DNA of 64,000 bases. Source: a virus. How positions within the stretch are numbered: position 1 is the first letter of the stretch; each line of letters begins with the position of its first letter. Shown here in pieces: positions 9,811-63,623 of the stretch. The position numbers were made by a program, and so were the translations under genes. The notes below the pieces were generated by a model. That model was given only the letters and a program-made list of their open reading frames with translations. It had not been told where the DNA came from and made no database searches. The stretch spans positions 28,483-92,482 of IMG/VR virus record IMGVR_UViG_3300042371_000472, one strand, 5' to 3'.

Positions 9811-9818
9811 GGAGAAAC

Positions 9819-10421: not shown

Positions 10422-10474
10422 CACACAACACCTATTAGGGTGCTACATTAGAAGTAAGTAATAAGGAGCATTAC

Positions 10475-15942: not shown

Positions 15943-15944
15943 CT

Positions 15945-45862: not shown

Positions 45863-45879
45863 TGTCCCACCGTGGGACA
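45863..45879. repeat. 17-bp palindrome, copy 1
   Basis: TGTCCCACCGTGGGACA abutting the AGGAG RBS of the glycosyltransferase. Confidence 0.95.
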
Positions 45880-45891
45880 GAGGAGTACAAA

Positions 45892-46971
45892 ATGAAAATT
45901 GGAGTCGCTTCAGGAGATTGGGTTCACCCCGATCATGTATCCGACGGCATTGAAAAATGGGGTGGCTCAGGATGGGCGAGGGTGGCTCAATACATGCCTC
46001 ACCTGACTGGGCACACCTTTCATGTCGGGACTCTAATTTTTGACCCCAAGCATGGGGCGTTTCAGTTACGCGACGCTAATGAAGTAATCCACGATGTGGA
46101 TGTCGTGTGGATGCAACGCCTCATGCATGGTGGGGCTGATGAGCGTATCCGCTTATCGCAGAAGCAGGGTCAGATCATCATCAACGATGTGGATGACTGG
46201 TATTGGGGGCTGTCTAGCACCAATCAAGCCTTCCACTTCACCCACCCTAAAACCAACGCCGACATCAATATCAACCACTACAAGGCGACTCTATGCGCCT
46301 CAGACCTATTGACAGTCAGCACCCCGTACCTCTACGAGCGCGTCAAGCAGTTCGCTCAGAACACAAAAGTCGTGCTGGTGCCCAACTACATTGATGTGGC
46401 TCGCTTTCCCAAGTACCGACATGTCGTGTCATCTAAGCCGACATTTGGCTGGGCAGGTAGCACTGCTCACCGAAGCCGAGACTTAGAAACTCTTGCTGGG
46501 GTTATAACTCCATTTGTTACCTCAGAAAAGATAACACTTCACCACCATGGCGCACACCCAGCGCATCCCACCATGGCATCTGCGTTACGACTTAAAGACG
46601 ATCAGGTTTCAACGACCCCATTGACCGACCACCTCAACTACCCAAATGGTTTGAGTTTTGATGTCGGCATCGTTCCCCTGAATGACATCCCATTCAACCG
46701 AGCCAAGTCAGACATCAAGGGTCTTGAGTACAGCGCCTGCGGTATCCCGTTCATTGCTCAGAACCTTGACTCATACACGCACCTGAAGTCCACACTAGGA
46801 ATTGGTCGCACAGCAAAGCGCCCCTCAGATTGGATTCGGCACATCAATGCGTTACGCTCTTATGATGCCCGAGTAGAAGAAGGAGAAGCCTGTTACGAGG
46901 GCGTAAAGGCTCGTGACATCAAATACGGGGCGCAACTCCACCAACAGATATTTGACCAATACGGAAAGTAA
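45892..46971 (+). CDS. Glycosyltransferase (GT-B, family 4-like)
   Basis: DVDD, VST.YL, VPN.ID, GWAGS..H..DL, D.GIVPL...FN.AKS.IK.LEY.A.GIP. Confidence 0.88.
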   Translation: MKIGVASGDWVHPDHVSDGIEKWGGSGWARVAQYMPHLTGHTFHVGTLIFDPKHGAFQLRDANEVIHDVDVVWMQRLMHGGADERIRLSQKQGQIIINDVDDWYWGLSSTNQAFHFTHPKTNADININHYKATLCASDLLTVSTPYLYERVKQFAQNTKVVLVPNYIDVARFPKYRHVVSSKPTFGWAGSTAHRSRDLETLAGVITPFVTSEKITLHHHGAHPAHPTMASALRLKDDQVSTTPLTDHLNYPNGLSFDVGIVPLNDIPFNRAKSDIKGLEYSACGIPFIAQNLDSYTHLKSTLGIGRTAKRPSDWIRHINALRSYDARVEEGEACYEGVKARDIKYGAQLHQQIFDQYGK

Positions 46972-46973
46972 CA

Positions 46974-47381
46974 ATGCAACCCATCAAACGACAAGTAGAA
47001 CTACCGTCATTAACGCACAGCAACATGAATTGGCAAGATCATGCATCATGCCGAGGCAGTGCTACCACTGACTTCTTTCAAGATGAAGTCGGCTTTCAGG
47101 CTAATTACTCCGCACAGCGAATCATGTGCGCCTCATGCCCAGTTCGTCTTGAGTGTTTAGACTTCGCCCTTGACAACCACATCAAGTACGGATTGTGGGG
47201 AGGAATCGCACCGAGGAATCGCCGTGATGTCGGTATGGGTAGAGCGAGTAAAGATTTAACCGTTACTCAGATCGTAAAAGACCTTAGAAAGTTAAAGGTT
47301 GAGAACCCCATCGCTCAGGCTTCCGTGATCTTCAAGACCAGCGAGAAAACTATCCGCGAACGACTACGACAAAACAAATAG
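46974..47381 (+). CDS. whiB: WhiB-family Fe-S transcription factor with C-terminal extension
   Basis: WQDHASC..FF..MCASCPVRLECL..YGLWGG.APR.R. Confidence 0.92.
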   Translation: MQPIKRQVELPSLTHSNMNWQDHASCRGSATTDFFQDEVGFQANYSAQRIMCASCPVRLECLDFALDNHIKYGLWGGIAPRNRRDVGMGRASKDLTVTQIVKDLRKLKVENPIAQASVIFKTSEKTIRERLRQNK

Positions 47382-47392
47382 TTTTAAGCCGT

Positions 47393-47454
47393 AAACAAAA
47401 AAAGAACCCCCCTCTCGCAACCCATAAGGGTCACGGGAGGGGGGTTACTTTTAT
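47393..47454. terminator. Bidirectional terminator between convergent transcription units
   Basis: A-tract, then AACCCCCCTC...GAGGGGGGTT, then T-tract. Confidence 0.8.
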
Positions 47455-47462
47455 ATAAGAAA

Positions 47463-47648
47463 CTAGCCAAGGGACTCGCAAGCGGTGATCCTCGCCGCCA
47501 ACTCGTCGTAATCCTCTGTGGATAAGTCGCCTCGCTTCAAGAGAACACGGGCGATATCTAACAATGTTCGTAGGTCTTCTTCAGCGGTGGCTAAACCTTG
47601 ATGTAAGGCGTTGAGATAAGCGACTCGCATTGCTCCTTGATCGGTCAT
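47463..47648 (-). CDS. Hypothetical protein
   Basis: AAGGAG RBS; 61 aa. Confidence 0.55.
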   Translation of the reverse strand: MTDQGAMRVAYLNALHQGLATAEEDLRTLLDIARVLLKRGDLSTEDYDELAARITACESLG

Positions 47649-47657
47649 GTCGGCTCC

Positions 47658-48080
47658 TTACGACCACTTGTATGGGGTTGCTGGGTCAATGTCTGCCCAA
47701 AGCACTCCGTAGTGCTCAGGCAACTTACGGACAAGATTGGCTCGGTGTGAGATGGCGACCTCGGGGTCAACGAGCCAACCAAAGCGAGGCAGGTCAGCGA
47801 GGTCTTGAATGGTCGTAAACAACGACCGCACCTTGTCACGGCAGGTGTCCTTATAACCGCGCCCAGTCCACTCGTCGCACATGGCGAACACATAGTGGGC
47901 GAGCAACTCCTCGTGACCAACCCAAGCCTTGACGGCAGGGTGATTACGCCAGCCAGTGCTGACGCCAGTCAAGGTATTCAGAATCTGAAGACCCTCTACG
48001 CGCTGTTTACCGAGGCGCTGTCGGTCTAGAACCTTGGCATTAGCGGTGAAGTCATCACCGTAGGGTATGAATGTTTGCAT
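47658..48080 (-). CDS. Pyrimidine-dimer DNA glycosylase family (MSMEG_6728-like)
   Basis: MQTFIPY...LD..RLGKQRVE..QI...W.NHPAV..W..SHRANL.RK...Y. Confidence 0.9.
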   Translation of the reverse strand: MQTFIPYGDDFTANAKVLDRQRLGKQRVEGLQILNTLTGVSTGWRNHPAVKAWVGHEELLAHYVFAMCDEWTGRGYKDTCRDKVRSLFTTIQDLADLPRFGWLVDPEVAISHRANLVRKLPEHYGVLWADIDPATPYKWS

Positions 48081-48493
48081 TAGTCACCTTCCTCAAAGTG
48101 TTGTTGTTCGTGCTTCTCTAACTCTTCTTCGCTTGGCATTACCTCACCGCACCACATGCATGACTGTGTTGCTTCTAACTCTTCTAACTCTTTTAATTCC
48201 TTCAACTTTTTTCGTTGATCGGTGAGTTCCACTAACTTACGACGAGACTCCTCTTTCATAGCCTTGACTTTGAGACGCTCGTCTTCGGTGAGATGTGGCT
48301 CAATAGGGTATGGCTCGTTGGAAATGTTTCGTTGATCTTGTTTTATGTTTTCTGAGGATTTCTTATACTTAGGTCTAACCTTTGGACTCCACCGTTCGTA
48401 GTCACCGTTGTAATTATCTTCCGGCTTTGCGTACGGTGATTGTTTCGGGATTTGGGGTTCAGGATAGTTACTCTTATCCTTATAAAAAGTCAT
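48080..48493 (-). CDS. Hypothetical protein with C2H2-like zinc finger
   Basis: CMWC.......LEKHEQQH; start uncertain. Confidence 0.5.
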   Translation of the reverse strand: MTFYKDKSNYPEPQIPKQSPYAKPEDNYNGDYERWSPKVRPKYKKSSENIKQDQRNISNEPYPIEPHLTEDERLKVKAMKEESRRKLVELTDQRKKLKELKELEELEATQSCMWCGEVMPSEEELEKHEQQHFEEGD

Positions 48494-48776
48494 CTTCGTC
48501 ATCCCACTCAAAGTCGTCAAGGCTGATACCTAACTCGTCATCTCCAAGCCATTGCTCATTCCCGTAGTACGACTGTGCATGCGCCCAGTCACGGAAGAAT
48601 CGGGTGTCGCCCTCCTCGGCGTTGTACACCTCAATGATCTCGTAGCAAGCAACATCTACGGCGTCCTTGATCAGCGGGATGAAGTCCTCAGGATTGTCAG
48701 GGTCGGACACCTCAAGGACAACTAAGTCCTTGCTTGGTGTCACCCTGATCTTGAAGACTGGCTTGAAATTGTCCAT
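48480..48776 (-). CDS. Acidic hypothetical protein
   Basis: Operonic, coupled to neighbours. Confidence 0.55.
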   Translation of the reverse strand: MDNFKPVFKIRVTPSKDLVVLEVSDPDNPEDFIPLIKDAVDVACYEIIEVYNAEEGDTRFFRDWAHAQSYYGNEQWLGDDELGISLDDFEWDDEDDFL

Positions 48777-49132
48777 TACTTCACCAGCACTTTCAAGTAA
48801 GACGAGTGCTTCAACTCGGTGACTGCGTCAATGACTTCGGCGTCAACGGCACCAAGTTCAATGGCGCTATCTACGGCGCTTGCCTTGACACTGACCTCGG
48901 TGATCTTCTTGAACAGCGACGGTGAGACCAAGTCCTTGAGGGCAATGGCGTCAAACGACCGACGATCCTGAGCGATGTGCTTCAGCGCATAACCATCCAC
49001 GACGACTTCGTCGCCCTCGTCAATGGCTTGCTTGAGCGCCTTCTCAATTTCCTTCAAACGAATCTCAGCCACCTTGCACTCGTTGTGAAGTTTGATGTAC
49101 TCCGTTACTAGGTTCTTCTCTGTCTTGTTCAT
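48776..49132 (-). CDS. Hypothetical protein (coiled coil + RRSFD motif)
   Basis: GAGG RBS; architecture similar to 28755-29189. Confidence 0.6.
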   Translation of the reverse strand: MNKTEKNLVTEYIKLHNECKVAEIRLKEIEKALKQAIDEGDEVVVDGYALKHIAQDRRSFDAIALKDLVSPSLFKKITEVSVKASAVDSAIELGAVDAEVIDAVTELKHSSYLKVLVK

Positions 49133-49293
49133 GCTGTTACCTCTTCCTCGTATCCGTCAAACCAAACTCCAGCCTCTCTAGTGTTTGGGTCTTTGCAATG
49201 TGCTTGAGCCTGTTCAAGCGTGAGTCCACGCTTGATTGTTTTGTTCTTCTTATCAGATTTCCACATACGAACGATCTTGTATGTACTGCTCAT
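49129..49293 (-). CDS. 54-aa hypothetical protein (MSSTYKIVR...GLTLEQAQAHC...WFDGY)
   Basis: Translated by hand; AGGAG RBS; ATGA overlap. Confidence 0.65.
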   Translation of the reverse strand: MSSTYKIVRMWKSDKKNKTIKRGLTLEQAQAHCKDPNTREAGVWFDGYEEEVTA

Positions 49294-49304
49294 TTGTCCA
49301 CTCC

Positions 49305-49568
49305 TCAGTGATGTGTGATGTCTTGGTTGATGATGTAGTTTGACCGTACTTGGGGGGTGTATGGATGTTTGTACGGGGTCGCATAATGGAAGACTCCATT
49401 GACCTCGGCTCCAATGCCCTCAAGGTATTCCCTGATGACTCGGGCGACTTCGCCCCACACCGAATCAGGTGTGTTCGTGTGGTCAGGATGTTGGTTGGGG
49501 AAATATAACCCCTCAGGAACGGTAAGAGTAATCCCTAAGTTCCCCGTGTAAGCCTGTTGCTCGCTCAT
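49305..49568 (-). CDS. Hypothetical protein
   Basis: Operonic. Confidence 0.55.
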   Translation of the reverse strand: MSEQQAYTGNLGITLTVPEGLYFPNQHPDHTNTPDSVWGEVARVIREYLEGIGAEVNGVFHYATPYKHPYTPQVRSNYIINQDITHH

Positions 49569-49972
49569 AACCCTTTCTCCAATTCTTCCAGTACCGCCCT
49601 CTCATGGCGATCTTGTTCAATGCGTGACTTGATGTACTCAAAGAGATTCTCGGTCAACTCGTTCAACTCTTCGTCGTTTTTTATTTCGTGATCATTGGCA
49701 ATGTCATGGGCAATCTCATCGGCGTACACGATGTCGTAACCCTTGCAGAACAACTCTTCCATTTGGTCTGCGGTGTACTTAGGGAACTCACGGCACAATC
49801 GTTCAATCAATGCGTACTGCGGAATAAGTTCCTTGTGCTTGATGTAGTGAGCAATGTGTTCGCCCTTGATCGCTTGCCAGTACCTGAAAAACTGGCAGGT
49901 GTTCTCAAGGTCAAACAGGTCGGTATCGGGATACAGATACCAGTCGCTGGCTTTGGTTCCTTCGTTGTTCAT
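49565..49972 (-). CDS. Hypothetical protein
   Basis: AGGAG RBS, ATGA overlaps. Confidence 0.6.
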   Translation of the reverse strand: MNNEGTKASDWYLYPDTDLFDLENTCQFFRYWQAIKGEHIAHYIKHKELIPQYALIERLCREFPKYTADQMEELFCKGYDIVYADEIAHDIANDHEIKNDEELNELTENLFEYIKSRIEQDRHERAVLEELEKGL

Positions 49973-50313
49973 ACTGTCTCCTCAATGTTCTCGCCGTAAT
50001 TGGCTTTGCCGTGTTTTGATTCGCTGTAACAATCGGTGTGGTAGTTGCCGTAATGGCACTTGCCATCTTCGTCTTCAAACTCCACGCGAGTTTCGCAGTC
50101 AATGTAAATTGGCTCTTCGCATTCGTCGCATTCAAAGCCAGCACATTCACCGCAAGCGAACCCATCTAAGTGTTCGTCTGTTTCTTCATCCCAACGGGTA
50201 GCAGGGATTCGGTTGATGAACTTTCCGACAGGAGAGCCATCCCTAAAGACAGCGCCAAATGCAGTGGGTTCTCCACAGTAAATACAGGGGTCAAAAGTGG
50301 GACTAACGGTCAT
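49969..50313 (-). CDS. Cys-rich zinc-binding hypothetical protein
   Basis: CIYC, CGEC, CDEC, H.DC; start 50313 after AGGAG. Confidence 0.6.
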   Translation of the reverse strand: MTVSPTFDPCIYCGEPTAFGAVFRDGSPVGKFINRIPATRWDEETDEHLDGFACGECAGFECDECEEPIYIDCETRVEFEDEDGKCHYGNYHTDCYSESKHGKANYGENIEETV

Positions 50314-50618
50314 TGCTTCTCCTCTTCGGTGTGTGGTTTTACTGGCTTGTACCCAATCCATATCCCATGGGGATGGACTACTGGGAGGGTCTCAATGCCC
50401 ACCCATTCCTCGTACTTACTCATGCTGAGGCATCGTGGGCATACTTCGTTGTTATCTATAGCAGTTGTACATTCGTCGCAATTCGGGTCATGGCAGAGTT
50501 CACCTTCGCAGGTGCATGGGGCATGTAGTGCTACGCAGTACAGCGCCCCAGCGAGGTGTCGTAACTTGACAGCCTCGTCAAAAACAGCAATCGGGTCTAT
50601 GCCCGTCTCAATGGTCAT
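50310..50618 (-). CDS. Cys-rich hypothetical protein
   Basis: CTC..C...CDEC...CPRC; AAGGAG RBS. Confidence 0.6.
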   Translation of the reverse strand: MTIETGIDPIAVFDEAVKLRHLAGALYCVALHAPCTCEGELCHDPNCDECTTAIDNNEVCPRCLSMSKYEEWVGIETLPVVHPHGIWIGYKPVKPHTEEEKQ

Positions 50619-50659
50619 GTGGTTCTCCTTGTGGTTTGATGTGTCACTATCGTGTTGTG

Positions 50660-50694
50660 TAGATGGGGTGTCCCACCGTGGGACACCCCATCTA
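50660..50694. repeat. Palindrome copy 2 (core 50669-50685), extended to a 35-bp perfect inverted repeat
   Basis: TAGATGGGG-core-CCCCATCTA. Confidence 0.95.
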
Positions 50695-50698
50695 AGGC

Positions 50699-51187
50699 TT
50701 AGGAGTTAGTTAGAACTTCTTTCTTACGGATAACAACGCCAGCACGGTGGAGCGTGTCGTACACGACCTTCGGCGTGACTGCGAGGTCTTTGGCGATCTT
50801 GACGCCCGACTCACCTGACTGGTAGCGGACAACGATGGAGTTGTTGCGCTCCGTGTTGGCTCGCTTGCGTCGTTCCACACCAACGGTGCGGAGGCTCGTG
50901 TAGACGGTCTCAACGGTCACTCCGAGGGAGCGAGCGATACTCGGGCCTGACTCACCTGAGCGGTAGCGGTTGGCAATCTCGGCACGGCGCATGGTTGTCT
51001 GTGCGCTTGACTTACGACCACGCTTGACGGGGCGAACAAAGATGCCAGCCTCACGAGCATGCTTCAGTAAATACTGGACTTGGTTCTCGCTAATTCCGTA
51101 TTCGGAAGCGACCACCGCCCGCACTTTTCCTGCATTGTGTTCCGCTACAACGGCATTTGCCAGCGCAACTCTCTTGAATAGATTCAT
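50699..51187 (-). CDS. Triple helix-turn-helix DNA-binding protein
   Basis: Three HTH-like repeats (VASEYGIS..V, IARSLGVT..TVY, IAKDLAVT..VVY). Confidence 0.75.
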   Translation of the reverse strand: MNLFKRVALANAVVAEHNAGKVRAVVASEYGISENQVQYLLKHAREAGIFVRPVKRGRKSSAQTTMRRAEIANRYRSGESGPSIARSLGVTVETVYTSLRTVGVERRKRANTERNNSIVVRYQSGESGVKIAKDLAVTPKVVYDTLHRAGVVIRKKEVLTNS

Positions 51188-51272
51188 GGGTTTTCCTTTT
51201 GGTTGGTTATTTGGTTTGGGATTAAATCCTCGCTGACTGGTGGGGGTACCAGCCAGCGAGGACATTGCTTAC

Positions 51273-52541
51273 TCAGAACGGTTCGTCGTCTCCGACGACC
51301 ACCTGAGGAGTTCTGCCAGCCTGCTCTTCAATCAAGAAGGTGCGGATGGACTTGTCATTGATGATGGCTTCCACCTTGGGGCGCTCACGCTCGTTGAAGA
51401 ACGAGGCAAACACTGCCAACCCAATCTCAACGCCAAGAGCGTCAATGTCTTTCTTGGCATCCACCAGCAACTTGGTGCCGACTGGTGTTTGGATTGAGCC
51501 GAGGCGACGAGCCTCACGGAGCGATTCCGCAAGCAAGACCATGCTGGGCGAGCCGAGCAACTTGGTCTCAACATCACGGTCGTATCCCCATGGGATGCGC
51601 TTGGTGAAGCGGTTGGCGAATGCCTCGTTGAGAGGCGAGGTACCACGGTACCCAGCAGGGTTCATGGTGCCGACAATCCAGCAACCCGTGTTCATCTTGG
51701 TCTGAGCCATGAGGTACTCACCCTCGGACTCCACAGCCTTCTGACGGTTGACGAACGAGCGTCGGTCGTCAGCGACTGGGTGGAGCGTTGAGGTGACTCG
51801 CTCGGGCATCATGTTGATCTCGTCAAGGTACAAGATGCATGGCACCTTGCTGGCGAGTTCAATGATGCCGTTGAGGAACACGAGGCGCTCCACGCCATCG
51901 GCACCGATGTGTGCGACCGACTGACCGAACAAGTCGTAGTCGGTGACACCAGCGGAACCGCTGAGGGTGAACACTGGGAGGGGCTTGGGGAAGCCCAGTT
52001 CCTTGGACACGAGGCAGGCGAGCACCTGAACGAACATGGTCTTGCCAGCCTGTGTGTCGCCCTCAAAGAGGACATTGGCTGAGTAACCATTGTTGTCACG
52101 GGTGCGCCAGTAGTGGAGCAGAAGGTCGGTGTCCTTGATTGAACCGAACAACTTGCGTGAGACATACTTCTTGAGCAAGTCCCATGATGGGCGGTACGGG
52201 TCAAGACGGACATCCATCGGGTCAACGATGGGCTTCTGTGCGACGACTACTGGAGCCGACGCTGGTGCGTTGACTGCTGGCGCAACTGCTGAGGTCACGA
52301 TGGTGCCATCCGAGAGCAACTTCGGGAGGAGGTAGACAACCTCACCGCTGGTGCGACGGACTTGGATGCAACGAGCGAACTCGGTGCCATCGGGGTCAAC
52401 TTCATTGGTGACGATGACGACTGTTTCGCCCACGGGGATTTCAACCCGAGTGCTGTCGGCTAATCGTGCGCTGACTGTCTTGGACTTTTTGGCAGAGATT
52501 TCAAACTCTTTGCCAACTGTGAGGTCGCTGATGCGAGCCAT
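51273..52541 (-). CDS. MoxR/CobS-type AAA+ ATPase
   Basis: GDTQAGKT, LYLDEIN, GTMNP.GY.GT.PLN.AF.NRF; start 52541 after AAGGAG. Confidence 0.88.
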   Translation of the reverse strand: MARISDLTVGKEFEISAKKSKTVSARLADSTRVEIPVGETVVIVTNEVDPDGTEFARCIQVRRTSGEVVYLLPKLLSDGTIVTSAVAPAVNAPASAPVVVAQKPIVDPMDVRLDPYRPSWDLLKKYVSRKLFGSIKDTDLLLHYWRTRDNNGYSANVLFEGDTQAGKTMFVQVLACLVSKELGFPKPLPVFTLSGSAGVTDYDLFGQSVAHIGADGVERLVFLNGIIELASKVPCILYLDEINMMPERVTSTLHPVADDRRSFVNRQKAVESEGEYLMAQTKMNTGCWIVGTMNPAGYRGTSPLNEAFANRFTKRIPWGYDRDVETKLLGSPSMVLLAESLREARRLGSIQTPVGTKLLVDAKKDIDALGVEIGLAVFASFFNERERPKVEAIINDKSIRTFLIEEQAGRTPQVVVGDDEPF

Positions 52542-52592
52542 GATGGTTCTCCTTGTGGTTTGGTGATTTGGTGGTTTAGGTTTTATTACTGC

Positions 52593-52609
52593 TGTCCCAC
52601 GGTGGGACA
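52593..52609. repeat. Palindrome copy 3 (central G)
   Basis: TGTCCCACGGTGGGACA between the VWA and MoxR genes. Confidence 0.95.
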
Positions 52610-52687
52610 CTTACTGCGATCTCCCCACCCCATGTACTACTGAGGTGGGGGAGAGACGGTATCTCTCAATTATTTGGATAACAACTC

Positions 52688-54850: not shown

Positions 54851-55080
54851 TTGTATCTCCATGTTCCGTTTGGACTAACGATGACGGGAGCGTCACCATA
54901 CTGAATGGGTAGGTCACAGTTGTTGAGACCATCAAGTGCGATGTCCCAACCAATGGCATCCCATGTGCCGTTGCCATGGAAGGCAACCTTGCATGTGGGC
55001 TGGTCACTATCTCGGCTCGCAAGAGCCAGCACAAGGCTGACTCCTGCGCCGATCAGAACTAACTTGCTGAATGGATTCAT
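54847..55080 (-). CDS. Small exported/membrane protein
   Basis: N-terminal hydrophobic helix. Confidence 0.5.
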   Translation of the reverse strand: MNPFSKLVLIGAGVSLVLALASRDSDQPTCKVAFHGNGTWDAIGWDIALDGLNNCDLPIQYGDAPVIVSPNGTWRYK

Positions 55081-55805: not shown

Positions 55806-55815
55806 GGTTGCCTCC

Positions 55816-56160
55816 TCAGGCGTCGTCGTTGTCGGATTCGTGTTTGCTGATGTACCTTGTCACGGCTGTTATACCTTGGACAATGATTGCTTGTTCATGT
55901 GCCTCCTTGAGAACGCTGAGGCATTCAATCAAACTGGTCAGTTCAGCAATCTTGGTCTCAAGTGCGAGCAGGCGACCTGCCTTGCTGACAAGGATTTCTG
56001 TGCCCCGACCGATGTTGTCGTTCAGGCGCTCGGTTGCCAACTTGCAGAGCGTACGGGTCTCGTACTCGTACTCGTCAAAAGCACTCTTGAGGTGTCGCTC
56101 GGCTTGAATCAAGCGATACTCAAACTCAAACTCAATCGGGTTTGTAACGGATGTTGCCAT
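55816..56160 (-). CDS. Helical hypothetical protein
   Basis: Start 56160 after CGCCTAAGGAGGC. Confidence 0.6.
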   Translation of the reverse strand: MATSVTNPIEFEFEYRLIQAERHLKSAFDEYEYETRTLCKLATERLNDNIGRGTEILVSKAGRLLALETKIAELTSLIECLSVLKEAHEQAIIVQGITAVTRYISKHESDNDDA

Positions 56161-56197
56161 TTTGTTTGCCTCCTTAGGCGTTGTTTTTAGATAAGAG

Positions 56198-56356
56198 TTA
56201 CTGTCCCACCGTGGGACAGTCGTGGACAAGTTCGCACTCGCAGTCGTAGTACGGGAACTTCAGACCGCATGTATCGCACACGGTCACATTGGGGTAGTAG
56301 GTGAAGCCCACGGGCTTGACGCCCGTGGACTCACAGCAGTACCAGTCGTCGCTCAT
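56198..56356 (-). CDS. 52-aa Cys-rich peptide ending inside the palindrome
   Basis: Translated by hand: MSDDWYCC...CDTC...CECELVHDCPTVGQ*. Confidence 0.5.
   Translation of the reverse strand: MSDDWYCCESTGVKPVGFTYYPNVTVCDTCGLKFPYYDCECELVHDCPTVGQ
56200..56220. repeat. Palindrome copy 4 (core 56202-56218)
   Basis: AC-core-GT. Confidence 0.95.
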
Positions 56357-56358
56357 GA

Positions 56359-56592
56359 TCAGTCCCAACTAATGAATGCGTTGCTGTCGGGGTGGGTGTA
56401 GAACGGGGGCGTCGCCACCAGTGTGGTGTCCTCGGCGCTGAAGCCGTTGATGGCATCAATCGCTTCGTCAATCTGAGCGACGACCTCTGCGTCTCCAGCA
56501 TCGCCTGACCACCACTCTCGGTAGTCCTCCAATGCGGTGACAATGATCGTGCTGTGTTCCTCAATGATCTGTTGGGCGGTGGGCTTGCTCAT
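56359..56592 (-). CDS. Hypothetical protein
   Basis: AAGGAG RBS, ATGA overlap. Confidence 0.6.
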   Translation of the reverse strand: MSKPTAQQIIEEHSTIIVTALEDYREWWSGDAGDAEVVAQIDEAIDAINGFSAEDTTLVATPPFYTHPDSNAFISWD

Positions 56593-56771
56593 GCTGTTTC
56601 TCCTTTGAGTTCAACTGCTTTGCCAATTCGTTCAGCAATTTCAAATATGTAATCTTCATTTTCTTCCAACTCTGCTTCATCGTTGGCGTCAAAATTGCTG
56701 GTATCAACAACTAAACATTCGCTGATATCAATGATGGTTCCTGTACCAAAATGTACGATTAACTTGCTCAT
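56589..56771 (-). CDS. Small acidic protein, paralog of 57019-57204
   Basis: IVH.GTGTII...EC.VVD shared. Confidence 0.65.
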   Translation of the reverse strand: MSKLIVHFGTGTIIDISECLVVDTSNFDANDEAELEENEDYIFEIAERIGKAVELKGETA

Positions 56772-57022
56772 GCTGGTTCTCCTTCGGATTGTTCGGGTTC
56801 AATTACTTCAATGCCACCAGTGGTGGTCAGGTCTTCGGTGATGTACGAGATGACGGCGTGGTCTTCTCCAAACCAACCCTCATCGTCTCGCACCTTGACA
56901 TCAATGCTGATCGGGAAGTCTTCAAAGGCTTCCTGAATGTCCACGGTCTCGTAGTCGTCGGGCACTTGCACCTCAGCGACAACGCTGAACTCGTACCACT
57001 GTGTGATGGTTACTGTCTTCAT
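56768..57022 (-). CDS. Acidic hypothetical protein
   Basis: AAGGAG RBS, ATGA overlaps. Confidence 0.6.
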   Translation of the reverse strand: MKTVTITQWYEFSVVAEVQVPDDYETVDIQEAFEDFPISIDVKVRDDEGWFGEDHAVISYITEDLTTTGGIEVIEPEQSEGEPA

Positions 57023-57204
57023 GATTGCTCTCCTTGTGGTTGTAGTTGTTGTCCAACACGCTGGGCGACCTCAATGATCTCGTCTTCCCAACCCGCGTCA
57101 AAAATCTCAGTGTCGTGGTCGTCTAGTTTGTCTAGGTCAACGACGACACACTCGTCGGCATTGATGATTGTTCCTGTTCCGATGTGAACGATGTACTTGG
57201 TCAT
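57019..57204 (-). CDS. Small acidic protein, paralog of 56589-56771
   Basis: IVH.GTGTII...EC.VVD shared. Confidence 0.65.
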   Translation of the reverse strand: MTKYIVHIGTGTIINADECVVVDLDKLDDHDTEIFDAGWEDEIIEVAQRVGQQLQPQGEQS

Positions 57205-57566
57205 ACCGATTCCTTTCTGCTTCGTGCGTATGCCCGTCGTGCTTGTTCCCGTAGTTCGTCTTCACGGCGGTTTGTCCATGTGATGGTCTCAAAGCCATAG
57301 ATGGTGACTTCGTCAGCATCAGCGAGCCAGTGCAATGGGCGCTCCACGCTGTATGTAATCAGGGCAATGTCAGTCCAATGCCAGTACGCCATCCCATCTT
57401 CAGAGATGGTGCGGTTGACTCCACGGAACTGGTAGGCGACGAGGTCGCCAGTTTTATTCGCCACAAACTCGGCGCTCTTGAACTGAACCCATGCTGGGTT
57501 GTCAAGATCAGGGTCGGTGACTAGCGCCCACCCTTGTTGGTTGATGATTGGGTTGATGGTCTTCAT
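57201..57566 (-). CDS. Hypothetical protein
   Basis: GGAGG RBS, ATGA overlap. Confidence 0.6.
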   Translation of the reverse strand: MKTINPIINQQGWALVTDPDLDNPAWVQFKSAEFVANKTGDLVAYQFRGVNRTISEDGMAYWHWTDIALITYSVERPLHWLADADEVTIYGFETITWTNRREDELREQARRAYARSRKESV

Positions 57567-57814
57567 TTTGATTCCTCCGTATGGGTAATGATCTTGCGGT
57601 CGTTTGCTTCGCCCCCGAGAATGGCGAACTCACGGATGAGTCGCTGGGCTTCTCTATTTGCTCCCCACTGGGTGTTGGTGTGGACATTCCAAACGAGGTT
57701 CTTGAGGTCGTCTGCGAATGGATTCGGCTCAACTCGGTAGATGCGAGTGAACCAGCGCAGAGCGCCGAGTTTGAATATCTCAATCTCGTAGGTTTCGGTG
57801 GTTTTTGTGGACAT
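57563..57814 (-). CDS. Hypothetical protein
   Basis: Start 57814 after AAGGAG. Confidence 0.6.
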   Translation of the reverse strand: MSTKTTETYEIEIFKLGALRWFTRIYRVEPNPFADDLKNLVWNVHTNTQWGANREAQRLIREFAILGGEANDRKIITHTEESK

Positions 57815-57873
57815 GATGTTTCTCCTTGTTTGTTGTTGTGTAGGTCTAACGATTGGGTGTGATGTAGTTGTGC

Positions 57874-57890
57874 TGTCCCACCGTGGGACA
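57874..57890. repeat. Palindrome copy 5
   Basis: TGTCCCACCGTGGGACA. Confidence 0.95.
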
Positions 57891-57929
57891 CTGGGGCTGG
57901 GCGCCACCACAACGCCCAACCCCAACCGA

Positions 57930-58829
57930 TCAGCCAAGACCAGCGAGGCAGTCCGAGCCGATGCCGATGGCTCGGCTGTGCTCATCCTTGAGTGTGCGAC
58001 CGCACACACCGCAGACCTTGAAGTGGACACCGAACGCACGAGCCAGTTCGGGCAGGTCGTACCTGACTAGGTCGGCAAGGACAGCATCCTGCTTGGCCTG
58101 TGGGAGGTTCTGCACTGAGTTGAAGTGCGAGCCACCGATGACCTTGGCAACGCCTGAGCGACTGACTCGGTAGTAAGCGAACCCGTCAATCTCGTCAGGG
58201 TCGGGCACTGCGAGACCGACATTGCCAGCCTTGGCATTGCCCTTGCCAACGGCTGTCAGGACTCGCTGGATGCCCGTGTCAATGCGGTCGTCAGTCTTCC
58301 CGTCACTGTGGGCACACGACTCGCACAGGGCATGCCAGCCAGCCTTGAGGTAAGCGATGTACTGGTCACGCTTACCGCACACCGAGCACTTGCTGGCGAA
58401 CCGAGCCTCAATGACCTTCTCGGCATCGGCAGGGACTGCTGGGTACTTGCTGACCCAGTCGGGGGCAACCGTGGGCAAGCCCCATGTGGCTCGTTCAGCC
58501 TTGGCTGAGTCAAGCAGGCGCTTGAGCACATCAATCGCTGTGGAGATTTCTGACTTGGCGATGGACTCTGCGCCCTCGGCAAATCCGATTACCTCAACCG
58601 TGCTGAGGACAATCTTCTCGCTGTTGACGAACTTTGTAACGACTGCCTTATCTAACTCAGTGAGAGTCTTAGATAAGAGTGTGTCAGCCTTGAGAGTCTG
58701 AGCATCGTCGCCCGACCAGTTGCTGGCTGGGTCTTGAGTGTCAACGACGACTTCGTTGAGTTGCTTCCACAGTGAGAGCAAGAACTGGACTTGCTTGGGC
58801 GTGGCTTCAGTTGAATAGGTGGTGGACAT
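57930..58829 (-). CDS. DUF6011-like zinc-binding protein
   Basis: C-terminal CGVCGRTL.D..S...GIG.DC; internal ARF...C..CG...C..C; N-terminal AT.KQ..F motif. Confidence 0.75.
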   Translation of the reverse strand: MSTTYSTEATPKQVQFLLSLWKQLNEVVVDTQDPASNWSGDDAQTLKADTLLSKTLTELDKAVVTKFVNSEKIVLSTVEVIGFAEGAESIAKSEISTAIDVLKRLLDSAKAERATWGLPTVAPDWVSKYPAVPADAEKVIEARFASKCSVCGKRDQYIAYLKAGWHALCESCAHSDGKTDDRIDTGIQRVLTAVGKGNAKAGNVGLAVPDPDEIDGFAYYRVSRSGVAKVIGGSHFNSVQNLPQAKQDAVLADLVRYDLPELARAFGVHFKVCGVCGRTLKDEHSRAIGIGSDCLAGLG

Positions 58830-58874
58830 GGTGGTTCTCCTTATGGTGGTTGGTGTTCACTATCTTGCGTTTGT

Positions 58875-58903
58875 GGGGAGTGTCCCACCGTGGGACACTC
58901 CCC
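58875..58903. repeat. Palindrome copy 6 (core 58881-58897)
   Basis: GGGGAG-core-CTCCCC. Confidence 0.95.
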
Positions 58904-58911
58904 TAAGTTGG

Positions 58912-60507
58912 TCAGCGGTACGAGTCCAACAATTCGTTGGCTGTTGAACCGCCGACCAAGGTCTCGGCTGAGTCGTCAAGGATGGCGCCGACGACGCCTG
59001 CCTTGCCCTCAAGCATGCCCCACAGGCGCTCGTCAACCGACGAGTCGCCATCAAGGGCACTGACCAAGATGTTGTTGGTGCACGGGCGTGTCTGCCCGTA
59101 CCGATGGAGCCGAGCCTCGGCTTGTTTAAGGGCACTCGGTGTCCACGGAAGTTCAACCGTGATCATCGTCGCACCCGATGTCATCGTGAGTCCCTCGGAC
59201 ACCGCTTGGATGTTGCCGATCAACACACGGGCAGTCCCAGCCTGCCACTTGTCAACGGCATCCTGTTTCTGCTTGCCCGAGTCGTCACCAGTGACGGAGA
59301 CGATTGTGCGAGCATCCACACCCTCAGCGATGAGGGACTCACGGAGTTTCCAAGCGACCTCCTTGTGGGCGGTCACGAGGAACACTTGCTCGCCCTCATC
59401 CAAGAGGCTGACCGTGGCATCCACTGCCGTGGACACCTTGCCGAGACCAGCGATCTGTCGGAGTTGACCGAGCAGAACGATGGCGTGGGCACGGTCGTTG
59501 AGCGAGAACTTGTCGTCGTCTCGCTTCTCTTGGAGGAACTCCTCAAGGTCACGGACTGCTCGCTTGTAGTCCGTCACAGCCTTGCCAGTAAGAGCGACGG
59601 GCGTGATGTACCGAGAGAACTCGGGGAGGATGATGACATCCTCACGCTTGCGCCTAATCATCACCCACTGGGTGAGTTGCTCGTTCAACTCTTTGACATT
59701 GGTGGCGCCATTGAATGTCGTACCAAAGCCGTTGAACACGGGGTCGCAGTATCGGGTCTTGAAGCGACTCGCACCGCCGAACCGAGGCAGGTGACCGAGG
59801 ATGTTGAGCAGTGGAATCAACTCCACTGGTCGGGACAGCAACGGCGTACCTGAGAGTAGGAGCACGGGCGCCTCGGGGTTGAGGTGCTTGGCAATGGTGA
59901 CCATCGCCTTGCTACGCCCCGAGTCCTCGGACTTGGAGCGGTGAGCCTCATCCTGCACCAAGCCAGCCCAAGGGTGCTTGGCGAGGATGTTGACGGGCTT
60001 GAGAGTCCGTTGCTCACGGGTCTTGCCCTGATTCGCTCGTGCCCACGAGTTGACCTCAGCGACTGGAGCCAGCGCCCAATACTGGATGACGCTGTCGGGG
60101 CAGATCACGATGTCCGTGTCGGGGACACTCGTGGGCTTCTGACCCGAGATGCGAGACACCGAGCGGTGAGGCAGGGCAGTCTTGATTGACCGCTCCCAGT
60201 TGATCACCAATGCTGGTGGACACACAATGAGGGCTGGGTAGGCGTTGAGTTCATCAAGTGCCAGCAGGGCGCTGTAGGTCTTGCCTACGCCCATGTCGTC
60301 AGCGATCAAGAGACGAGTGTGACCAGCCTTGACGGCTTCAGCCACAACGAGTTGGTGAGGCATCGGGGTGATGGCGAGCGTGTGCTCTACGATGCCCTCA
60401 GGGGCGATGCGACCCGAGAACGGGCGCAAGCCCGTGGACACCTTGGCGACAGCCTCAGCGAGGATGTCGGTAGCGCTTCGGGCGTTGGTACGGTCACTTA
60501 ATGCCAT
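58912..60507 (-). CDS. SNF2-family (SF2) helicase
   Basis: LIADDMGVGKT, DEAH, LSGTP, EGL.M, W.P....QAEARLHRYGQ. Confidence 0.92.
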   Translation of the reverse strand: MALSDRTNARSATDILAEAVAKVSTGLRPFSGRIAPEGIVEHTLAITPMPHQLVVAEAVKAGHTRLLIADDMGVGKTYSALLALDELNAYPALIVCPPALVINWERSIKTALPHRSVSRISGQKPTSVPDTDIVICPDSVIQYWALAPVAEVNSWARANQGKTREQRTLKPVNILAKHPWAGLVQDEAHRSKSEDSGRSKAMVTIAKHLNPEAPVLLLSGTPLLSRPVELIPLLNILGHLPRFGGASRFKTRYCDPVFNGFGTTFNGATNVKELNEQLTQWVMIRRKREDVIILPEFSRYITPVALTGKAVTDYKRAVRDLEEFLQEKRDDDKFSLNDRAHAIVLLGQLRQIAGLGKVSTAVDATVSLLDEGEQVFLVTAHKEVAWKLRESLIAEGVDARTIVSVTGDDSGKQKQDAVDKWQAGTARVLIGNIQAVSEGLTMTSGATMITVELPWTPSALKQAEARLHRYGQTRPCTNNILVSALDGDSSVDERLWGMLEGKAGVVGAILDDSAETLVGGSTANELLDSYR

Positions 60508-60558
60508 GGTGGCTCCTTAGTTGGTGGTGGTTTACTTATCTGTCACTATCGTCATTGT

Positions 60559-60589
60559 AGGGGAGTGTCCCACCGTGGGACACTCCCCT
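60559..60589. repeat. Palindrome copy 7 (core 60566-60582)
   Basis: AGGGGAG-core-CTCCCCT. Confidence 0.95.
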
Positions 60590-60595
60590 TACTGG

Positions 60596-61081
60596 TCACC
60601 ACGACGCTCGGTAGAAAAAGTCCCAGTATTCGGTGACGGGGTCATTGAGCAAATTGTCAATGACCTCGGCGGTGTACCGCAACGATTCCAAGTACCACTC
60701 GTCGTACTCCGTGCTCCCAAAGAAGAAGCCCGAGGTCGTCGGGAGGTGCTCGTTGGCGTACGAGTCACCGTGGATTGCCAAGCCCTTGGGCACGGTGTAA
60801 CACAGTTGGTGGAGCGCCACCAACTTCTCACGGCTGACATGAAAGCCATTGCCGTCATCCACGCCATCGTTGCATTCCTGCACGAACCAGTTGTGGATGG
60901 CATTGGCTTTGCGCCAGTACGCCACGGTCACATCAATCGTGATGTACGGGTGGTCGGGGTCAGCGATGCTGGAAGCGTTCACGAGGTCAATGATCTCGGC
61001 GTACTGGAGGCGTTCAGCGTCGGTGCTCCACTGACTACCACTGATGCAGTGCTTGGCTGATAGGTATTGGTCAAGTCCCAT
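60596..61081 (-). CDS. Conserved phage protein of unknown function
   Basis: MGLDQYL...YWRKANAIHNWF...LPT..GFFFG...YDEWY...Y.ASW pattern. Confidence 0.75.
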   Translation of the reverse strand: MGLDQYLSAKHCISGSQWSTDAERLQYAEIIDLVNASSIADPDHPYITIDVTVAYWRKANAIHNWFVQECNDGVDDGNGFHVSREKLVALHQLCYTVPKGLAIHGDSYANEHLPTTSGFFFGSTEYDEWYLESLRYTAEVIDNLLNDPVTEYWDFFYRASW

Positions 61082-61261
61082 GTCGGGTCTCCTTTGGTTG
61101 GTGGTTGGTTTGGTTGGTGGTTGGTTGAATCCGCAATGACACCCTCCCCACTACTATGGGTTGCTCGTGGGGACTTCCCACTTTCCCTCGTTGCTGACGC
61201 TTGTCCACAACGGGGGGAGGGTGTTTCGGGAGTTTGTTGTCCCGAAATCTTGAGATCGGTT

Positions 61262-61286
61262 GGGGTGTCCCACCGTGGGACACCCC
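61262..61286. repeat. Palindrome copy 8 (core 61266-61282)
   Basis: GGGG-core-CCCC. Confidence 0.95.
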
Positions 61287-61295
61287 GAGGCTCGG

Positions 61296-61634
61296 TCACC
61301 CGAATACGAGGTCACCGAGCACGATGTGCTGGAGCACGACATCACTGGCGTCTGAGTCAAAGTCGTCGCTGTCCACCGCCGACTGCACGACTTGCCAGCC
61401 AGCCTTCTTCTCCTTGATGATCTCATTGACGACTGCCTTGGCACGGCTCGGACTGAATGTCACCGACTTGGTGATGATCTTGCCATCGTCGGTCGTCTCC
61501 CCCGTTTCCATCTTGCAGACAATTTGTTCTTCATCGGTGATGTCCAGTTTGCGATACCACTCGTAGGTCTCGGCTCCCGAGTAGATCAGCGTGTCCATGA
61601 CTTCTTGGGCGTTTGCTGTCCATACTGTTTTCAT
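61296..61634 (-). CDS. Hypothetical protein
   Basis: GCCTGAGGAGGC leader; D.D...D..LQ...LG.LVFG terminus. Confidence 0.65.
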   Translation of the reverse strand: MKTVWTANAQEVMDTLIYSGAETYEWYRKLDITDEEQIVCKMETGETTDDGKIITKSVTFSPSRAKAVVNEIIKEKKAGWQVVQSAVDSDDFDSDASDVVLQHIVLGDLVFG

Positions 61635-61643
61635 GTTGCCTCC

Positions 61644-61916
61644 TCAGGCTTGATGTTGTTGTAGTTGCTTCTTCAGCCATTTGCTGGCTTCTTCGGGGTC
61701 AAGGGAATCTAGATACCGATCAACTGGGTGATCACCGTTGTCGTAATTCCAGTGGGGGTAATCTTCCCGTAGTCGCTCTATTTCCCGATCAACCTCCGTC
61801 TGAGCGACGGGGGCGTACAGGCTTCGTGCAACACCGTTGACGATCTCGTACTCACCCGAGGCAAGGCATGCCTCGTTGCGTTGCTCGTTGTACAACTTCT
61901 CAAGTTTCTTGCTCAT
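61644..61916 (-). CDS. Hypothetical protein
   Basis: CGCCTGAGGAGGC leader. Confidence 0.6.
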   Translation of the reverse strand: MSKKLEKLYNEQRNEACLASGEYEIVNGVARSLYAPVAQTEVDREIERLREDYPHWNYDNGDHPVDRYLDSLDPEEASKWLKKQLQQHQA

Positions 61917-61957
61917 GTTGCCTCCTCAGGCGTCGTTGTTCACTATCGGGATATTTG

Positions 61958-61999
61958 TGGGGCGAGTGTCCCACCGTGGGACACTCACCCCGAGGTTGA
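61958..61999. repeat. Palindrome copy 9 (core 61967-61983); 42-bp direct repeat with copy 10
   Basis: TGGGGCGAG-core-CTCACCCCGAGGTTGA. Confidence 0.95.
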
Positions 62000-62003
62000 G
62001 CGA

Positions 62004-62282
62004 TCAGTAGATGCCGTCAGGCTCATCGTCGCTGATGAACTCGTGGGCGAACAGTGGGTCAAAGCCACACTCTTCAAGAAACGAGCGGTAGTTGTACACT
62101 CGGTCGCTGTCGCTGAGACCTGCATACGGCACGAGTGCCGAGTGGATTTGAACGGCGATCTGAGCCAACTCCACGGTCGCCTTGGTCGCTACGCCACCCG
62201 TGAGGCGGTTCATGGTGAAGTGGTCACGGAAGGCGCTGGCGACTCGGTCGCATGCTTGCTCGGGTGTTCGGTTGATGTCCAT
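62004..62282 (-). CDS. Hypothetical protein
   Basis: Start 62282 after CGCCTAGGAGGC. Confidence 0.6.
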   Translation of the reverse strand: MDINRTPEQACDRVASAFRDHFTMNRLTGGVATKATVELAQIAVQIHSALVPYAGLSDSDRVYNYRSFLEECGFDPLFAHEFISDDEPDGIY

Positions 62283-62322
62283 GTTGCCTCCTAGGCGTTG
62301 GTGGTGGTTGATGGTTGGTGGA

Positions 62323-62364
62323 TGGGGCGAGTGTCCCACCGTGGGACACTCACCCCGAGGTTGA
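62323..62364. repeat. Palindrome copy 10 (core 62332-62348)
   Basis: Identical 42 bp to copy 9. Confidence 0.95.
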
Positions 62365-63132
62365 TCAGGCGCTGAGGGCGTCGGCGCTTGCATTGAACAG
62401 GTTGCCCCGATCTTGCTGATCAAGTGGCACGGTGTTGGCGCTGACACGGAGCAGTGCCACGGCGAGCGTGGCGAACACTTCGTGGTCATCCTGAAGCGAT
62501 GCGATCAGGTTGGCGGTGACATCGGCAATGGCTTCGGCGCCATGCTCAGTCAACTGTGCGACGATCTCGTCAACGGTCAAGGCGACCACTGACTCGTCGG
62601 TGCTGTCGGCGTCGCTCTCGGCGCTCTCGGTCTCGGCTTCAGCCTTGGCAGACTTCTCAGCCTTTTTGGCTTCGCCCTTTTCGGCTTTGTTGATCTTGGC
62701 GAGCACTTCAAGGGCGTCGGCGCTCTCATCCTTGATGAGGATGGCGCCAGCCTTGGCGTAGCGAGCGTAGGTGGACTTGCCGATCTTGGCGCCAGCAGTC
62801 TTACTTGCCAACTCAAGGGCACGGAACGAGACACCAGCCTCGTTGGCGTTGAACACGGCGATGCATGCCGAGCGGAGCGCCAACTTGGCGTCGGCAACGG
62901 CGCTCTCGGACTTGATGGCTTCGGCAACAGCCAAGGCGGTCAGGTCGGCAGGGGTCGCCTTGACTTCAACGACTTCGGCAACTACTGGCGCTTCAACAGC
63001 GACAGGCTTGGCGGTGTGGGTACGGGCTTTTTTGGTGGTGGTGGTTGACACTTTGGTCTCCTTGGTTGTGGTGGTGGCTGGTTTGCCAGCGAGCAGATTG
63101 GCGAGTCCTACTGGGCGGTCGGTGGTCTTCAT
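62365..63132 (-). CDS. Ala/Lys-rich protein with possible HTH
   Basis: GVSFRALE.......IGKSTYARY is HTH-like; start 63132 after CGCCTGAGGAGGC; strongly biased codons. Confidence 0.65.
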   Translation of the reverse strand: MKTTDRPVGLANLLAGKPATTTTKETKVSTTTTKKARTHTAKPVAVEAPVVAEVVEVKATPADLTALAVAEAIKSESAVADAKLALRSACIAVFNANEAGVSFRALELASKTAGAKIGKSTYARYAKAGAILIKDESADALEVLAKINKAEKGEAKKAEKSAKAEAETESAESDADSTDESVVALTVDEIVAQLTEHGAEAIADVTANLIASLQDDHEVFATLAVALLRVSANTVPLDQQDRGNLFNASADALSA

Positions 63133-63164
63133 GGTGTGCCTCCTCAGGCGTTGGTGGTGGTTGA

Positions 63165-63193
63165 ACTGTCCCACCGTGGGACAGTCGTGGACA
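63165..63193. repeat. Palindrome copy 11 (core 63167-63183); 29 bp identical to copy 4
   Basis: ACTGTCCCACCGTGGGACAGTCGTGGACA. Confidence 0.95.
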
Positions 63194-63606
63194 GGTGCGA
63201 TTGAACGCTACGCCCGAGGCGCCTGCCCGAATTGCGATGATCATATATGAGTCCAAGATCGGTGGACTCCCCTCCCTTGCTTCACCCGAGGGGATTGGAT
63301 GCACTGCAATCTTTTATGAACGGCTCGCCAACCTTGGTGATTGCTAGTCACCGATACATCGTTGTTTGTATTTCGGGTATCCATCGGACTTCCAGCAGGC
63401 ACAGGTGGCGGTGCATTCGCTGGTCACTTGATCTTGGTGAAGTTGCTCGTCGTATCGGCTCGGCGCTTGCCCTCATACTCACCAGCGTCGCTGGGGCGCA
63501 TCTCGGTCATCCCCGTTGGTGCAGACATCTGCTGGGGGAAACCATCACGGCGAGTGCCTGTGATGCTTGAGTGTTTGGGGTCACGCTCTGCTGACCAGTC
63601 ACTACC

Positions 63607-63623
63607 TGTCCCATGGTGGGACA
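63607..63623. repeat. Palindrome copy 12 (variant)
   Basis: TGTCCCA-TGG-TGGGACA; arms conserved, centre changed. Confidence 0.85.

Follow-up and report, generated by a model that had tools for sequence, protein, structure and literature searches.

Twelve perfect 17-bp palindromes in the early region of a lake phage form a candidate operator array nested in messenger RNA hairpins

We analysed 64,000 nucleotides of viral DNA (positions 28,483 to 92,482 of the IMG/VR record IMGVR_UViG_3300042371_000472), here called the window, which form the final 64 kb of a 92,482-bp virus record that is 98% complete. The window carries twelve perfect copies of a 17-bp palindrome, TGTCCCA-NNN-TGGGACA, and this array is highly non-random. 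The reading that we favour, with a probability of roughly 45%, is that the palindromes form an operator array for a phage-encoded helix-turn-helix (HTH) dimer, and that the operators are nested in hairpins that punctuate the transcripts.

The palindromes were located by exact pattern search. Eleven of them have the form TGTCCCAC(C/G)GTGGGACA, and the twelfth, at 63607, has a TGG centre. All twelve coordinates in an earlier first-pass annotation of this DNA, including that of the 63607 variant, were found to be exact. Dinucleotide shuffles of the window gave expectations of 0.00 and 0.34 copies, against the 12 present. Raising the tolerance to two mismatches brought no extra site in the window, and a scan of the whole 92,482-bp record gave no palindrome beyond these twelve, in line with the earlier remark that the structural and replication blocks contain none. 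The early region is 93% coding and 7% non-coding, and 10 of the 11 early-region palindromes are entirely intergenic. The genes from 47.4 to 63.2 kb all lie on the minus strand, on which the distances to stops and starts were measured. The palindromes had been described as following a stop codon and preceding the leader and ribosome-binding site of the next gene. Read on the minus strand, this order holds between 47.4 and 63.2 kb, with 13-20 nt from stop to palindrome at six sites, but at three sites the distance is 39-140 nt. The start codon comes 34-59 nt after the palindrome at nine sites, while the site at 45863 has a gap of 12 nt and that at 61266 one of 184 nt. Single genes are bracketed by exact repeats that include palindromes, with lengths of 42, 30 and 29 bp.

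Scanning IMG/VR by the exact motif and by the SNF2 helicase gene of this phage yielded eight related lake-phage contigs, which keep palindromes at orthologous sites with 6-13 copies per relative. In G001-G004 and L324 the sequence at orthologous positions is TGTCCCA-CSG-TGGGACA, and in G005 (SNF2 69% identical) the arms are unchanged, with the centres CSG, TCG/CGA and TAA. G007, a near relative of G005, has TGTCCCG-TWA-CGGGACA in nine of nine copies. G006 (SNF2 97% identical) has TGTCCCG-(AST or TGT/ACA)-CGGGACA in 12 of 12 copies, within flanks that match those of G002 exactly. The outer arm bases, 12 per site, were identical in all 60 distinct sites from seven genomes, in which neighbouring genes go down to 42-76% identity. 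Genomes with 55-70% identity elsewhere have letter-perfect arms over about 70 sites, and no mismatched variant of the palindrome was found in this phage or its relatives. The seventh (inner) pair is A:U in 39 of the 60 sites, G:C in 21 and unpaired in none, and all copies of one genome change together. The invariance claimed earlier for the full 7-bp arms therefore applies inside this genome, but not in the relatives, where the seventh pair switches from A:T to G:C; the invariant unit across the relatives is TGTCCC-N5-GGGACA (6+5+6). The central triplet reverses between orthologous sites with identical flanks, irrespective of the direction of transcription, which a symmetric reader would permit and a loop-specific RNA reader would not.

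Comparison of the relatives also pointed to a candidate reader. G006 is a mosaic, with 94-100% protein identity to this phage from SNF2 onward and 45-69% in the module upstream of SNF2, yet every one of its sites carries the other centre. That module includes the position of the first early gene (62365..63132, minus strand), which encodes a protein of 255 amino acids (aa) with a disordered N-terminus, a central HTH domain at about residues 60-150 and a C-terminal helical domain. The protein belongs to a family of 62 metagenomic homologues without a named domain. A type I central domain co-occurs with the A-type palindrome centre in this phage, G002, L324 and G003, and a type II central domain co-occurs with the G-type centre in G006, L322 and L325, so that the domain type matches the centre type in seven of the seven genomes or contigs compared. 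The G003 allele is recombinant and joins a type I central domain to a type II-like C-terminus, which assigns the link with the centre to the central domain. The structure model is helical, with the HTH at residues 103-134 and a pLDDT of 76-83. A symmetric homodimer was predicted with a score of 0.71, against 0.00 for the best control, with a partner pLDDT of 78 and with at least 97% of the contacts agreeing between runs. In the calibration of this mark, 0.71 was attained by 20 of 30 solved homodimers and by 1 of 23 monomers, and the prediction, as a modelled result, supports pairing of the protein. An Atlas lead (score 0.87) to a DUF3102 identity was dropped, as Pfam gave it no backing.

An alternative candidate reader is a basic protein of pI 11, encoded at 50699..51187 on the minus strand, in which three HTH modules stand in tandem. 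Its recognition helices are unchanged in relatives at 54-60% overall identity, and for this reason it could be the protein that reads the invariant arms. In the early proteins common to all five genomes that were fully compared, no residue tracked the A or G state of the centre; the only positions that did so were in tail and baseplate genes, a sign of a tail module in common. G006 and G007 share residues against the nearest relatives of each in their tail, tape-measure and baseplate proteins (window 8248-21643), which indicates that the two sublineages exchanged a tail module.

At about two-thirds of the sites the flanks lengthen the stem of the palindrome, by bases that differ but are complementary. 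At least four Watson-Crick flank pairs with the own partner were present in 30 of the 60 distinct sites, as compared to 6.1 (maximum 15) with shuffled partners. The flank co-variation score was 0.258, against 0.124 for shuffled partners and at most 0.117 for slid controls, and none of 500 shuffles attained 0.258. Orthologous sites of near-identical genomes show compensatory double changes, for example GATGGGG/CCCCATC versus GACGGAG/CTCCGTT. Folding energies of -29 to -35 kcal/mol, with z-scores of -2.5 to -5.7, were obtained for six sites, and the stems begin 5-9 nt past stop codons. All of this would also be expected if the palindrome were an element of RNA only, namely the conserved tip of intergenic messenger RNA (mRNA) hairpins that are recognised as folded RNA and act in attenuation, nuclease cutting or 3'-end protection, like the early RNase III sites of T7 or the PeSL stem-loops of T4.

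We consider such an RNA-only element unlikely. One would expect its stem to accept compensatory changes in the 6-bp core, like those in the flanks, but the core shows none in 60 sites. Four sites have the core stem alone, limited to 7-9 bp, which is too short for RNase III; the longest stems are of 15-16 bp, unlike the T7 sites with their irregular stem of about two helical turns. No U-tract follows the palindrome at any site, the downstream tails are C/A-rich and no palindrome appeared in the terminator scan, while the phage does have a canonical bidirectional intrinsic terminator at the convergent operon junction (47400-47452), with a 13-bp G+C stem, an A-run before it, a U-run after it and -37 kcal/mol. 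Nor can the stems be efficient terminators, since a promoter-like leader is missing from several of the genes downstream. On the sense strand, internal G.U pairs exceed A.C pairs mildly, in 8 versus 5 distinct contexts. The palindromes at 57874 and 52593 are without a flank stem, and an unrelated G+C-rich hairpin alongside each does the post-gene job. The 17-mer and the post-gene RNA hairpin are thus two separable, usually nested elements, and the invariant core must give sequence-specific recognition and not mere pairing. A search of Rfam over 44-64 kb returned nothing at E ≤ 1, and a tRNA search returned none.

For the favoured operator array, we infer binding by a phage protein with a regulatory outcome along the following lines. 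Each palindrome would be the docking site for one symmetric dimeric HTH protein that reads two TGTCCC half-sites with centres 11 bp apart; the symmetry and the 11-bp spacing suit a dimer. The 255-aa first early protein would be the best candidate for this dimer, with the triple-HTH protein as the alternative. As a site heads nearly every early translation unit, a single protein could act simultaneously across the entire early region. The box GATAGTGA was found six times on the minus strand (50644-50651, 58857-58864, 60543-60550, 61940-61947, 55004-55011 and 945-952) and never on the plus strand, and for four of these boxes a palindrome precedes at 15-19 nt and a start codon follows at 23-35 nt. 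The sequence of the box suggests a possible promoter element of -10 type for the early operon. In these four units the palindrome would then stand upstream of a strand-specific -10-like box at the -35 position, and could gate re-initiation, and in the remaining units it may act as a roadblock or marker. The second, separable element would be the G+C-rich RNA hairpin without a U-tract just past the upstream stop, usually with the palindrome at its tip, and it would probably attenuate transcription or protect mRNA 3' ends. The identical units of 17-42 bp would, as a by-product, be substrates of homologous recombination.

Several results weigh against an operator array of this kind. The flank co-variation together with the mild G.U excess points to a folded strand. 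A sigma-70 promoter scan gave no promoter at any palindrome and no enrichment, and only 4 of the 12 sites have the -10-like box. The link between allele and centre rests on just 2-3 independent lineages, with neighbour genes of the same module co-linked. The folds nearest to the model of the 255-aa protein are weak matches, namely sigma-factor region 4 bound to -35 DNA (Z 6.3, root-mean-square deviation 2.8, 49 residues) and a small-terminase HTH, and the protein had no significant match in Pfam, PHROG, PDB sequences or Foldseek. Scans with its profile recovered six viral and three metagenome loci only; no relative was found in G005, G007 or other motif-bearing phage loci, with the G005 and G007 contigs ending before the position of the gene. 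Finally, chromosomes of Paracoccaceae (Tabrizicola, Citreimonas, Neotabrizicola and Gemmobacter; G013-G016; L327-L446) contain the exact 17-mer TGTCCCACSGTGGGACA as a dispersed repeat, with 71, 71, 28 and 29 copies as compared to 0-1 of a control pattern, which allows a host factor or a nature like that of repetitive extragenic palindromic (REP) elements. A homologue of the candidate phage reader was not detectable in the Paracoccaceae chromosomes that bear the 17-mer.

In the REP-like case, the palindrome would be a generic extragenic repeat, made uniform by gene conversion or a mobilising activity, and any reader would be cellular. The Paracoccaceae copies fit this picture, as they lie at a fixed 17-18 nt from a conserved AACCCATTGAWWT (TTGAWW) box in 42 of 55 units. 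This box is -35-like and also fits the IHF consensus, and genes often begin 20-60 nt past the palindrome. A centre that is uniform within a genome and differs between genomes is likewise typical of REP families, and two of 401 sampled Actinomycetota genomes carry 17 and 37 larger palindromes built of GTCCC/GGGAC words. Still, we regard a REP-like origin as rather improbable. The RAYT transposase gene (Y1 type, PF01797) is absent both from the phage and from the four Paracoccaceae genomes with 28-71 copies. All 12 phage sites are orthologous across the relatives, with no empty site seen, and the sites are restricted to one operon arm and are not genome-wide. The probable host is actinobacterial, yet 399 of the 401 Actinomycetota genomes had counts at chance level. 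G105 and G256 gave a single chance-level match each, and none of the claims here depends on them.

The motif is found in phages beyond this group as well. Its arms occur in multiple copies in unrelated viral contigs, including several high-GC phage contigs. A low-GC phage group (L213, L260, L259, L256, L243 and L232), relatives of the HMO-2011-type podophages of Alphaproteobacteria, has 6-11 copies of TGTCCCAASTTGGGACA. In this group there are no flank stems; two copies in the divergent control region abut TTGACA -35 boxes, and the others lie directly upstream of ribosome-binding sites. Neither BLAST nor phmmer found a regulator common to the motif-bearing phage groups. Roseobacter phage CRP-1 has a different, looser palindrome, GTCCAA-NN-TTGGAC. 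The first-pass annotation knew of no analogous system with this sequence; the 17-mer is not confined to this phage, and Paracoccaceae chromosomes and other phage groups carry it. A full-text search of the literature returned no paper with the 15-mers, matches to TGTCCCAC were unrelated, and INPHARED gave no near or distant DNA match to the early region.

This recurrence across Paracoccaceae and unrelated phages suggests a broader system. It is conceivable, though we find it doubtful, that TGTCCC-N5-GGGACA is recognised by dimeric DNA readers of a widespread but undescribed class and is used independently by the lake phages, the HMO-2011-like contigs, the high-GC phage contigs and Paracoccaceae, and that the reader in this phage is a new HTH dimer resembling sigma region 4, the central domain of which co-evolves with the centre of the palindrome. 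If so, the near-identical genomes would present a natural swap of specificity. Two side observations concern other motif-bearing contigs. In the viral contigs L006, L010, L013 and L020, single 17-mers adjoin parS-like palindromes GTTCCACGTGGAAC, a pattern in the sequence that hints at arrays of related ParB-type sites. A 96-aa protein encoded beside a Dps/ferritin-like gene (window 23344-23634, minus strand) has a 42%-identical homologue at L232:6518-6853, adjoining the palindrome cluster of that unrelated phage.

Dedicated site-specific exchange of gene cassettes at the palindromes, as in integrons, appears highly improbable. Alignment breakpoints lie within 80 nt of a palindrome in 4 of 16 cases against G002 and in 8 of 21 against G006, as compared to 9.8% expected by length. 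The gene at 55816-56160 occupies another palindrome interval in G006, and the exact repeats that bracket single genes are of 29-42 bp. Lake-metagenome contigs also show joints at palindromes (61281 to 63164; 60586 or 63183 to other palindromes), where they join or diverge, but with sides that are short. These contigs may be repeat artefacts, and the joints were left out of the evidence. In the comparison with G002 and G006, roughly one breakpoint in two is at a gene junction that has no palindrome, and insertions and deletions of small genes occur at such junctions too. Tyrosine (PF00589) and serine (PF00239) recombinases are absent from the 98%-complete genome, which has no integrase or resolvase. 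The cores are perfect palindromes, without the extrahelical bases of attC sites, and the mixed orientation of the centres would yield inversions by a recombinase, of which none were seen. As there is no recombinase, the breakpoint pattern looks like homologous exchange at short identical units, as in the T4 PeSLs. Such recombination at the 29-42-bp identical units is a plausible by-product, and would account for the concerted evolution of the copies and for some module exchange. Of the two roles proposed earlier, a regulon or a cassette-shuffling system, the regulon is the best fit, given the letter-perfect arms, the symmetry and the candidate reader. The comparison of gene gain and loss with G002 and G006 placed some breakpoints near palindromes and many at other gene junctions, and a dedicated shuffling mechanism is not supported.

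Single-stranded DNA hairpins serving as promoters or as replication priming signals are very improbable here: the 7-bp stem and 3-nt loop fit the hairpin geometry of phage N4 and wobble pairs lie on the non-template strand, but N4 promoters go with a giant virion RNA polymerase and a fixed loop-centre purine on the template strand, whereas the longest open reading frame (ORF) of this genome has 905 aa and so leaves no room for such a polymerase, the loop bases flip freely with C or G at the loop centre on either strand, and the sites precede ordinary ribosome-binding-site leaders.

Individually, the sites of the proposed operator array differ in their surroundings. All but the last described here are on the minus strand. 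The leftward early operon begins with a non-coding head of about 0.8 kb (63184..64000). The end of the record truncates this head, which in the complete relative G002 runs on into the divergent gene arm. Within this head lies the palindrome at 63607..63623, with the sense centre CCA and no flank stem. The next (63167..63183) stands 34 nt before the start of the 255-aa gene, in a 29-bp exact repeat that it has in common with the site at 56202. At 62332..62348 the palindrome tips a flank stem of 8 bp, GGGGUGAG/CUCGCCCC, in which one pair is G.U, and lies in the 42-bp exact repeat. The same 42-bp unit recurs at 61967..61983, where the full stem (61959-61991) has -34.5 kcal/mol and the GATAGTGA box follows 19 nt downstream. 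The palindrome at 61266..61282 has a GGGG/CCCC flank stem (61262-61286). The SNF2 helicase gene has a palindrome on both sides: the upstream one (60566..60582) has a stem at 60559-60589 of -34.6 kcal/mol, the downstream one (58881..58897) has a stem at 58875-58903, each is accompanied by a GATAGTGA box, and the two have a 30-bp exact repeat in common.

Further along the operon, the palindrome at 57874..57890 is abutted by its separate hairpin, a 15-bp G+C-rich stem at 57891-57925. The palindrome at 56202..56218 supplies the final seven codons of a small ORF rich in Cys (56198-56368, minus strand). This ORF is conserved and zinc-ribbon-like, with CxxC pairs, and the 17-mer gives it the C-terminus DCPTVGQ. 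At 52593..52609 is the sole early-operon copy with the sense centre CCG, with its separate 10-bp hairpin (52623-52650) 13 nt upstream; a direct repeat flanking this site was judged to be due to chance, since it is absent at the orthologous site of G005. The palindrome at 50669..50685 lies 13 nt past the stop of the triple-HTH gene, in a stem (50660-50694) of -32.9 kcal/mol, and again has a GATAGTGA box. The twelfth (45863..45879) is on the plus strand in the rightward operon and directly abuts the ribosome-binding site of a glycosyltransferase-like gene; a flank stem is absent here, but in G005 and G007 the site has a 7-bp co-varying stem.

The phage is present in lake-water metagenomes, and no RNA dataset containing this stretch was listed. 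Its genes include WhiB (66.6 bits), a DUF6011 protein, the SNF2 helicase, an AAA_5 ATPase, a family A DNA polymerase, a DpdA-like transglycosylase and the basic triple-HTH protein. Because of WhiB and DUF6011, the host is probably a freshwater actinobacterium; the abundance of the 17-mer in Paracoccaceae stands beside these genes in the question of the host. The DpdA-like queuine tRNA-ribosyltransferase homologue and the glycosyltransferase-like gene near it (window positions 43154-44572 and 45892-46971) suggest, from their sequences, a DNA modification of the 7-deazaguanine type, possibly with a sugar.

Among known systems, the PeSL cassettes of T4-type phages (Arbiol et al. 2010, PMC2839356; Comeau et al. 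2014, PMC4122927) resemble the array in having GGGG...CCCC stem-loops between small early ORFans of a hyperplastic region, a promoter-like sequence after the stem, and short identical units where relatives differ by gene insertion, deletion or replacement. Unlike the array, PeSLs have full sigma-70 consensus promoters and proven terminator stems, while here a -10-like box is present at a third of the sites with no -35/-10 promoter; conversely, PeSLs are without an invariant 17-bp core. The separable palindrome and hairpin of this phage illustrate how an operator can be nested with signals of transcript punctuation.

Global operator arrays are formed by the palindromes of Noc and ParB-type proteins and by KorB with its 12 OB sites on plasmid RK2. 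The half-site here, TGTCCCAC, may resemble that of parS, TGTTTCAC. Unlike in the ParB-parS, KorB and Noc systems, the ParB N-terminal domain (PF02195) was absent from a six-frame search of the phage at E ≤ 1; the ORFs at L035:938-2324, at the start of the phage record, had no Pfam match at E ≤ 0.01. The stoperators of Cluster A mycobacteriophages also form a global operator array (PMC9283540). In common with all of these, one protein, here a putative reader, would act at a dozen or more identical sites over the transcription units. The Cluster A stoperators differ in being asymmetric (13-14 bp), oriented with transcription and found in temperate phages, whereas the sites here are symmetric with mixed centre orientation, and no integrase or repressor cassette was found. 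From integron attC sites the array differs by its perfectly palindromic cores and by the lack of a tyrosine recombinase.

Reports of identical palindromes arrayed in the early regions of phages go back to at least 2015, for Cluster O, Cluster EG and the start-associated sequences (SAS/ESAS) of Cluster K, and these arrays are still without an assigned reader protein or function. The Microbacterium Cluster EG phages have 18-bp inverted repeats (PMC7302621). The Cluster O mycobacteriophages have 17-bp repeats, TGTTCGG-NNN-CCGAACA, for which a dimeric DNA-binding protein was predicted as the reader (Cresawn et al. 2015, PMC4351075). As in Cluster O, the repeats of this phage have a 7-3-7 layout with TGT...ACA ends, invariant arms, a variable and flipping centre and many copies, and they are densest in the leftward non-structural arm of a lytic-looking phage without an integrase. 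Unlike in Cluster O, the arms are TGTCCCA/TGGGACA and not TGTTCGG/CCGAACA, there are 12 copies and not more than 30, and nearly all copies are intergenic, as compared to about a third in coding sequence in Cluster O. In addition, most copies here form the tip of longer stems that co-vary, close relatives differ by a concerted switch of the centre, and some rearrangements lie next to the sites, where Cluster O showed none. The array is a further member of the known class that the Cluster O 17-bp repeats typify. Within this class it offers two genomes that are 94-100% identical over most of the early region and differ in all twelve centres and in one early gene module, so that only a few proteins need be considered as the reader.

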